A stretch of 64,000 nucleotides of DNA. It comes from Eledone cirrhosa (taxonomy: Eukaryota). This document shows positions 48,737-48,980 of this stretch, piece by piece (the stretch's first letter is position 1; each line of letters opens with the position of its first letter). The notes beneath the pieces are model-generated. The model was not told the origin of the DNA, ran no database searches, and saw nothing but the letters and a program-made list of their open reading frames with translations. Both the position numbers and the translations under genes were made by a program. Location of the stretch: contig OZ024762.1 in the NCBI GenBank assembly GCA_964016885.1, forward strand, positions 2,480,001-2,544,000, in the 5' to 3' direction.

Positions 48737-48739
<3 letters not shown>

Positions 48740-48980
48740 CGTTCCTTTGTCAGTGTTGAACAAACGAGCAACGATGGTTGCTGGACACTACGTCTTAATA
48801 CGGGATGTTTGTTTACAAACACAGCAAGCATTATAATAAATGTTCGGTGAATCCATACGTACATATATATATGTGTGCATGTATGTATATATATATATAC
48901 ATACTACTGTACGTCTGTATACATATATGTAACAGCCGTACTAAGGGTGGGAAATGAAATTTTGTTTCATTTTTTCCGTT
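48737..48980 (+). repeat. Diverged partial monomer of the 466-bp retrozyme family
   Basis: Colinear blocks CGTTCCT.TGTCAGTGTTGAACAAA, GTTTGTTTACAAAC, CTACTGTACGTCTGTATACATATATGTA, GAAATGAAATTT. Confidence 0.85.

Follow-up and report, generated by a model that had tools for sequence, protein, structure and literature searches.

Does self-cleavage by a hammerhead ribozyme leave a mark on the genomic copies of the element that carries it? The question is raised by a 64,000-nucleotide stretch of the genome of Eledone cirrhosa (GenBank assembly GCA_964016885.1, contig OZ024762.1, positions 2,480,001 to 2,544,000 of the forward strand; hereafter the window), in which a 466-bp repeat with a predicted hammerhead occurs both as a tandem array and as a solitary copy that begins just past the predicted cut. 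A sequence-only reading had taken this start as the trace of a cDNA that ran off the 5' end of a self-cleaved linear RNA. The function of hammerheads in endonuclease-bearing Penelope-like elements (PLEs) is termed "still unclear" (10.1101/2021.04.23.441226), and retrozymes are described as PLE-derived (10.64898/2026.07.22.740005). Being one copy, it offers a lead, among elements of a class already known, and it bears on the role of the ribozyme in Penelope-type mobility. The features of the locus are collected in Table 1, where the unit is numbered from 8387, the first base past the predicted cut (+1).

Table 1. Features of the 466-bp family in the window
Feature	Position	Strand	Remarks
Left arm of the array, in inverted orientation; the 15 full units identical; 5' end at unit +376	1..7484	-	runs off the window
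Right arm of the array, built of 466-bp units, the 16 full ones identical; 5' end +28, 3' end +248 into (TA)n	7482..15624	+	
Type I hammerhead, one example of each unit's	8349..8393	+	predicted cut 8386^8387 (GUA^C)
Pure (TA)20 tract, 5' flank, inferred target	48697..48736	.	last TA (48735-48736) also = U16.1-A17
Partial retrozyme copy, second subfamily, unit +1 to +310	48737..48983	+	without ribozyme core
Helix I 3' strand remnant, first bases past the predicted cut	48737..48743	+	+3 T to G vs array
TA-rich self-complementary internal stretch, shorter than the array's	48859..48921 (approximate limits)	+	
(AT)9 tract, 3' flank, inferred priming side	48984..49001	.	

All 31 full units of the array are identical, and each contains the hammerhead motif. 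The units stand in plain head-to-tail order without an LTR layout, at a GC content of ~36% (under the 50% retrozyme criterion), and one unit folds to -156 kcal/mol, with none of 100 shuffles as stable and a z score (-8.75) that is inflated by a TA-rich hairpin. A tandem unit, here apparently non-coding, that holds a single type I hammerhead, low GC, a strongly self-paired fold, and the joint occurrence of arrays and dispersed copies likewise characterize metazoan non-LTR retrozymes (PMC7229834; 10.64898/2026.07.22.740005), and the element is a new member of that known class. Its length is slightly above the 150-450 bp given in one account (PMC7229834) and within the 51-972 bp given in another (10.64898/2026.07.22.740005); the internal TA-rich hairpin is a further difference. 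An autonomous PLE was considered and rejected, because 466 bp are too short for a reverse transcriptase plus a GIY-YIG endonuclease, reading frames by which PLEs differ from this unit, and no GIY-YIG was found in the four open reading frames scanned for domains, which gave LINE-type domains or no match. Nor was a PLE reading frame recognised in the window, where open reading frames were listed from 15700 and the same four were scanned. Exact-pattern scans returned 0 loci in metagenome contigs and 0 in viral contigs. The two arms of the array are joined 5'-to-5' at 7482-7484, where unit +376 meets +28 with a 3-nt overlap; this inversion, together with the identity of the units, agrees with a rolling-circle insertion of recent date that involved twin priming or a 5' inversion of the PLE type, or else with an assembly artefact. 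Inverted, 5'-truncated partners are reported for PLEs (PMC4209133, PMC11167929, 10.1101/2021.04.23.441226), and by analogy the head-to-head array would fit them.

Self-cleavage at the site given in Table 1 is a prediction from the motif. The bases there agree with the type I pattern (C3 U4 G5 A6 N7 G8 A9...G12 A13 A14, A15.1-U16.1, H17, open helix I), with a 7-bp helix I (AACGGUG/CAUCGUU), a core of CUGAUGA...GAAA with U16.1-A17 and then C, and a helix III formed by the palindrome ACUAGU, followed by A17. Helix II has 3 bp with a U.U at its base, so that the G10.1-C11.1 pair is absent. That pair is a strong preference and no strict rule, since the axolotl hammerhead HHR_Amex2 also has U.U at the base of helix II, yet cleaves (PMC7229834); the single-pair helix III with a palindromic tetraloop has its counterpart in HHR_Amex1 from the same source. 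The best of two Rfam matches on 8200-8520 was Hammerhead_HH9 (E=0.046, 18.5 bits; gathering score 52), whose alignment places the core identically to our placement. Across the whole window no Rfam family was found at its gathering score, and the E-value matches over 39000-50000 were mostly microsatellite-driven miRNA models, with hammerhead families absent. In the monomer the active fold is marginal (-0.6 vs -9.5 kcal/mol for the best fold), and in silico two monomers cofold via the ACUAGU palindrome. These modelled folds fit cleavage as a dimer, a mode reported for the type I hammerheads of metazoans (PMC4209133, PMC7229834); a palindromic helix III suited to dimer cleavage is a further likeness to PLEs (PMC4209133, PMC11167929, 10.1101/2021.04.23.441226). 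Of nine predicted Xenopus retrozyme dimers, one cleaved in vitro (10.64898/2026.07.22.740005).

The solitary copy starts at 48737 with CAGCGTTCC..., which aligns to unit +1, CATCGTTCC..., and 26 of its first 28 bases are identical. Its overall identity to the array unit, gaps left aside, is 84% (200/237 aligned bases). BLAST against the microsatellite-masked unit matched 48735-48820 (E=6e-7) and 48922-48983 (E=4e-9), and nhmmer gave E=2.5e-6 and 9e-4 for the two non-microsatellite parts of the copy; judged by these alignments, the homology is not due to chance. The junction described in the earlier reading, a (TA)n tract followed by homology from the first base past the predicted cut, was thus upheld, as was its caveat that the TA before the site is also a microhomology with the tract. 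This overlap is 2 nt long (48735-48736), so that the 5' boundary may lie at any of three positions (-2 to +1). The 3' end does lie in a (TA)n tract as claimed, at 48983 (unit +310) rather than at 48980, with a TAT at 48981-48983 that is compatible with both the element and the (AT)9 tract. No target-site duplication is readable, because both flanks are (TA)n microsatellites. Unit homology was not detected upstream of the (TA)20 tract, where 30 of 300 shuffles score as high, or downstream of the copy, where 266 of 300 do. The designation as a monomer had to be dropped: the copy spans 310 of 466 unit positions (67%), below the 80% criterion for a full-length monomer (10.64898/2026.07.22.740005), and the ribozyme core is absent. 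The idea that its substitutions preserve RNA structure was not supported: five of ten changed pairs outside the microsatellite still pair, where 3.4 were expected (p=0.19), and folding of the 5' part is no better than that of array sequence mutated at random, of which 20% of 1000 versions were as stable.

Contigs from public sequencing runs indicate where this copy stands in the family. Part of the stretch searched occurs in 20 of the 24 listed runs, none recorded as RNA, which is no evidence either way. Contigs aligned to 8166-8510 were taken from four of the 24 (X1, X2, X4 and X23). X23 yielded none and X1 four short, unrelated-looking pieces, less than 90% alike, and the many organism labels of the runs were therefore not read as a list of hosts; so abundant a repeat may also have been carried over. 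X4 gave 20 contigs and X2 5372. The X2 contigs, whose depths are not copy numbers, vary at 31 places at a level of at least 1%, which supports the claim of a diverse family. Within the hammerhead, variation is strong at N7 (8360), the core position that is free to change, with 36% of depth, and in loop II, with 48%; the invariant core bases do not appear among the listed changes, a pattern in favor of the run-off route proposed below, if weak by itself (~30% by chance, an estimate). The idea that the +3 T to G of the copy compensates for the helix I variant at 8353, with which it would restore pairing, was considered and set aside, since the +3 change is not among the X2 variants of at least 1%.

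One X4 contig covers 8357-8482, core included, and shows the differences typical of the copy. From +1 to +92 the copy is 10 edits from this contig and 24 from the array, and the loose end of the contig continues like the copy (26/29 bases, by eye). Because the contig joins the core to copy-type differences, the copy is to be placed in a second subfamily, one in which the ribozyme is present; because it carries the core upstream, the absence of the core from the copy reflects truncation and not a trait of the subfamily. The divergence of the copy from the array, to judge by these edit counts, appears to be mostly a difference between subfamilies and not a matter of age. It does not date the copy, and the claim of an old family is not supported; that of a dispersed family is borne out by one non-array copy, the only one found in the window by BLAST and nhmmer, and is limited to it. 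In X2, a loose end at 8211 passes through the TTTAT of +310 and goes on as ATAT; it has a variant that the copy lacks, may rest on very few contigs, and hints that the +310 3' end recurs in another copy.

How often would a boundary fall at the cut by accident? On a uniform null, three of the 466 positions are allowed, giving 0.6% for this boundary, and 1.9% if a hit by any one of the three 5' ends that the family has in the window is counted. If boundaries track TA dinucleotides, 58 of the 466 unit boundaries are TA-preceded, 26 of them outside the internal microsatellite, and the chance is one in 58 (1.7%) or one in 26 (3.8%). The coincidence of boundary and cut is real, and it is suggestive for a single case noticed post hoc. 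Among the three 5' ends of the family it is the one at the cut, the array ends at +28 and +376 missing it. None of four mapped 5' ends in two other hammerhead families of the window (39624 on the minus strand, 39731 on the plus strand, ~46057, which lies ~55 bases before its site, and the core-less 48085-48170) is at the cut; three of these four were found via the core, which biases against the site. Further copies of these two families were not found in the window by nhmmer. In X2, no loose end at 8385-8387 was present among the six places listed out of a larger set (7-47 contigs each), and (TA)n junctions collapse to few contigs; two X4 contigs do end at 8385, and such ends, being graph branch points, were left out of the counts.

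We lean, by a little over an even chance, to a route in which reverse transcription by a Penelope-type enzyme started within the RNA, with nicked (TA)n as primer, and ended by run-off from a self-cleaved RNA. Multimeric transcripts would self-cleave, probably as dimers, given that helix III is a short palindrome. The GIY-YIG endonuclease of a borrowed Penelope-type machinery would then nick (TA)n, and the nick would prime on UAU at unit +308 to +310, so that the cDNA starts inside the RNA, stops at the cleaved 5' end (+1), and is joined to the tract. On such a route the TA overlap would be incidental, as a UA stands before the site in every case and insertion is into (TA)n. The sharp boundary and the undetected upstream homology support it, and the chances given above (0.6%, or 1.7-3.8% if TA is tracked) make run-off the best single explanation, as the sequence-only reading had proposed. 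That the cut-site start reflects in-vivo activity of the predicted ribozyme is a fair hypothesis; it stands on one copy and on one of three family ends. The copy itself, lacking a core, is a dead end. A lone copy set in (TA)n does not tell run-off and its rivals apart, because the last two bases of the cut triplet are UA themselves. Against run-off may be counted the family ends at +28 and +376, the zero of four ends in the other families (a biased sample), the absence of G10.1-C11.1, an active fold that is not the lowest in energy, the single cleaving dimer among the nine predicted for Xenopus, and the lack of a recognised PLE reading frame among those listed from 15700.

Those same array ends show that arbitrary 5' ends occur in the family, and in other families of the window the dispersed fragments, too, have their ends elsewhere. 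Both facts favor a 5' truncation on an uncleaved template, a circular RNA or a multimer, whose cDNA was joined through the TA microhomology that the UA of the cut triplet provides; the required overlap is present at the junction. Circular RNA is the proposed template of retrozymes (PMC7229834), and uncleaved RNA is the dominant template for a PLE in vitro (PMC11167929). Truncation demands a coincidence of one in 26 to one in 58, and we regard it, the main rival, as less likely than run-off, if by no means negligible. The same coincidence is demanded by a loss of the upstream part after insertion, through deletion or slippage between the (TA)n tract and the pre-site TA, or by DNA-level recombination from the array. 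Long, unstable (TA)n tracts abound in the region, each unit has a TA-rich tract of its own, and a target-site duplication, as noted, is not readable, all of which would suit such an event; no remnant of the unit was detected upstream, and by eye the upstream flank is unlike the internal tract of the unit beyond composition. We consider it improbable. A stall of the reverse transcriptase at the ribozyme junction of an uncleaved RNA, caused by structure or a bound protein, would gain from the circular fold, in which the bases just past the site begin a long closing stem, and from a ribozyme that may be weak given its U.U at the base of helix II; one would look for a structural stop at the stem's 3' foot, not exactly at the scissile bond, and a stall here seems most improbable.

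Known systems speak on both sides of the run-off route. The anole PLE PAc has a reverse transcriptase shown to nick AT-rich DNA and to begin synthesis within its RNA (PMC11167929), and PLE clades show a microsatellite bias, (TA)n in Naiads, and 5' inversions (10.1101/2021.04.23.441226); an AT-rich or microsatellite target and internal initiation would be common to the present copy and to PLEs, pLTR hammerheads and PAc (PMC4209133, PMC11167929, 10.1101/2021.04.23.441226). With PAc, however, uncleaved RNA was the dominant template in vitro, ribozyme mutants inserted normally, and 0 RNA-seq reads ended at the site (PMC11167929), so that cleavage was dispensable there, the opposite of what the copy suggests. 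Genomic 5' junctions that track a ribozyme cleavage site are known from R2 with its HDV-like ribozymes (PMC3774820), which differs in its ribozyme class, its autonomy, its specificity for 28S rDNA, and in that the link was shown by experiment. For the hammerhead repeats of schistosomes (SM-alpha) and newts (satellite 2), cleaved monomers have been proposed to be reverse-transcribed into dispersed, non-propagating single copies (PMC6765202), a likeness to the 466-bp family at the level of description. In the open-access literature searched, no title or abstract opening pointed to a study that places the 5' ends of dispersed retrozyme copies against the hammerhead cut, nor does the text consulted of the two retrozyme accounts (PMC7229834; 10.64898/2026.07.22.740005).

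A broader possibility, which we hold tentatively and at less than even confidence, is that dispersed copies arise from self-cleaved linear RNA, with a fixed 5' end at the cut and a preferred internal start near +310, and arrays from circles. One Penelope-type machinery would then use two templates, and past hammerhead cleavage in the germline could be counted in the genome as a fossil record. Should genomic 5' ends peak at the scissile bond, cleaved linear RNA would be shown to serve as a template in the germline, and assemblies alone suffice for such a count.

The window is microsatellite-rich and LINE-bearing overall, and has other hammerhead-like elements. A second family with minimal hammerheads lies at 39531-39850, with cores at 39624 (-) and 39731 (+), ~107 bp apart, a long helix II and a palindromic helix III; this pair matches the dual opposite-strand hammerheads of PLEs (PMC4209133). 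A third copy of the second family, at 46057-46163, sits between (TA)n tracts and starts ~55 bases before its predicted cut; the exact common 3' end of this copy and that at 39731 suggests a fixed start of reverse transcription. A third hammerhead family is represented at 49065-49400 (core 49138, minus strand), tail-to-tail with the solitary copy across a common microsatellite stretch and ending ~25 bases past its predicted cut, and by an inverted, core-less fragment at 48085-48170, ~600 bp upstream of that copy. Further hammerhead-core-like motifs occur singly at 46711 (-) and within a near-perfect 94-bp inverted repeat at 43198-43291, and at 62800-63200 the core scan gave an identical sequence at 63066 (+) and 62943 (-), which suggests a perfect local inversion. 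An apparently intact two-frame LINE, which we take to be Tx1/L1-like, occupies 52043-57367 on the minus strand, with a frame of 621 aa without a Pfam match followed by one of 1152 aa with endonuclease, RT and zf-RVT. Related LINE fragments lie at 27301-27945, 31785-32627 and 61505-62554 (-); a domain scan of the first two showed a PHD-like finger in both and RT in 31785-32627. A 72-bp tandem repeat family is found at 25800-26018, 27943-28844 and 57400-59190.
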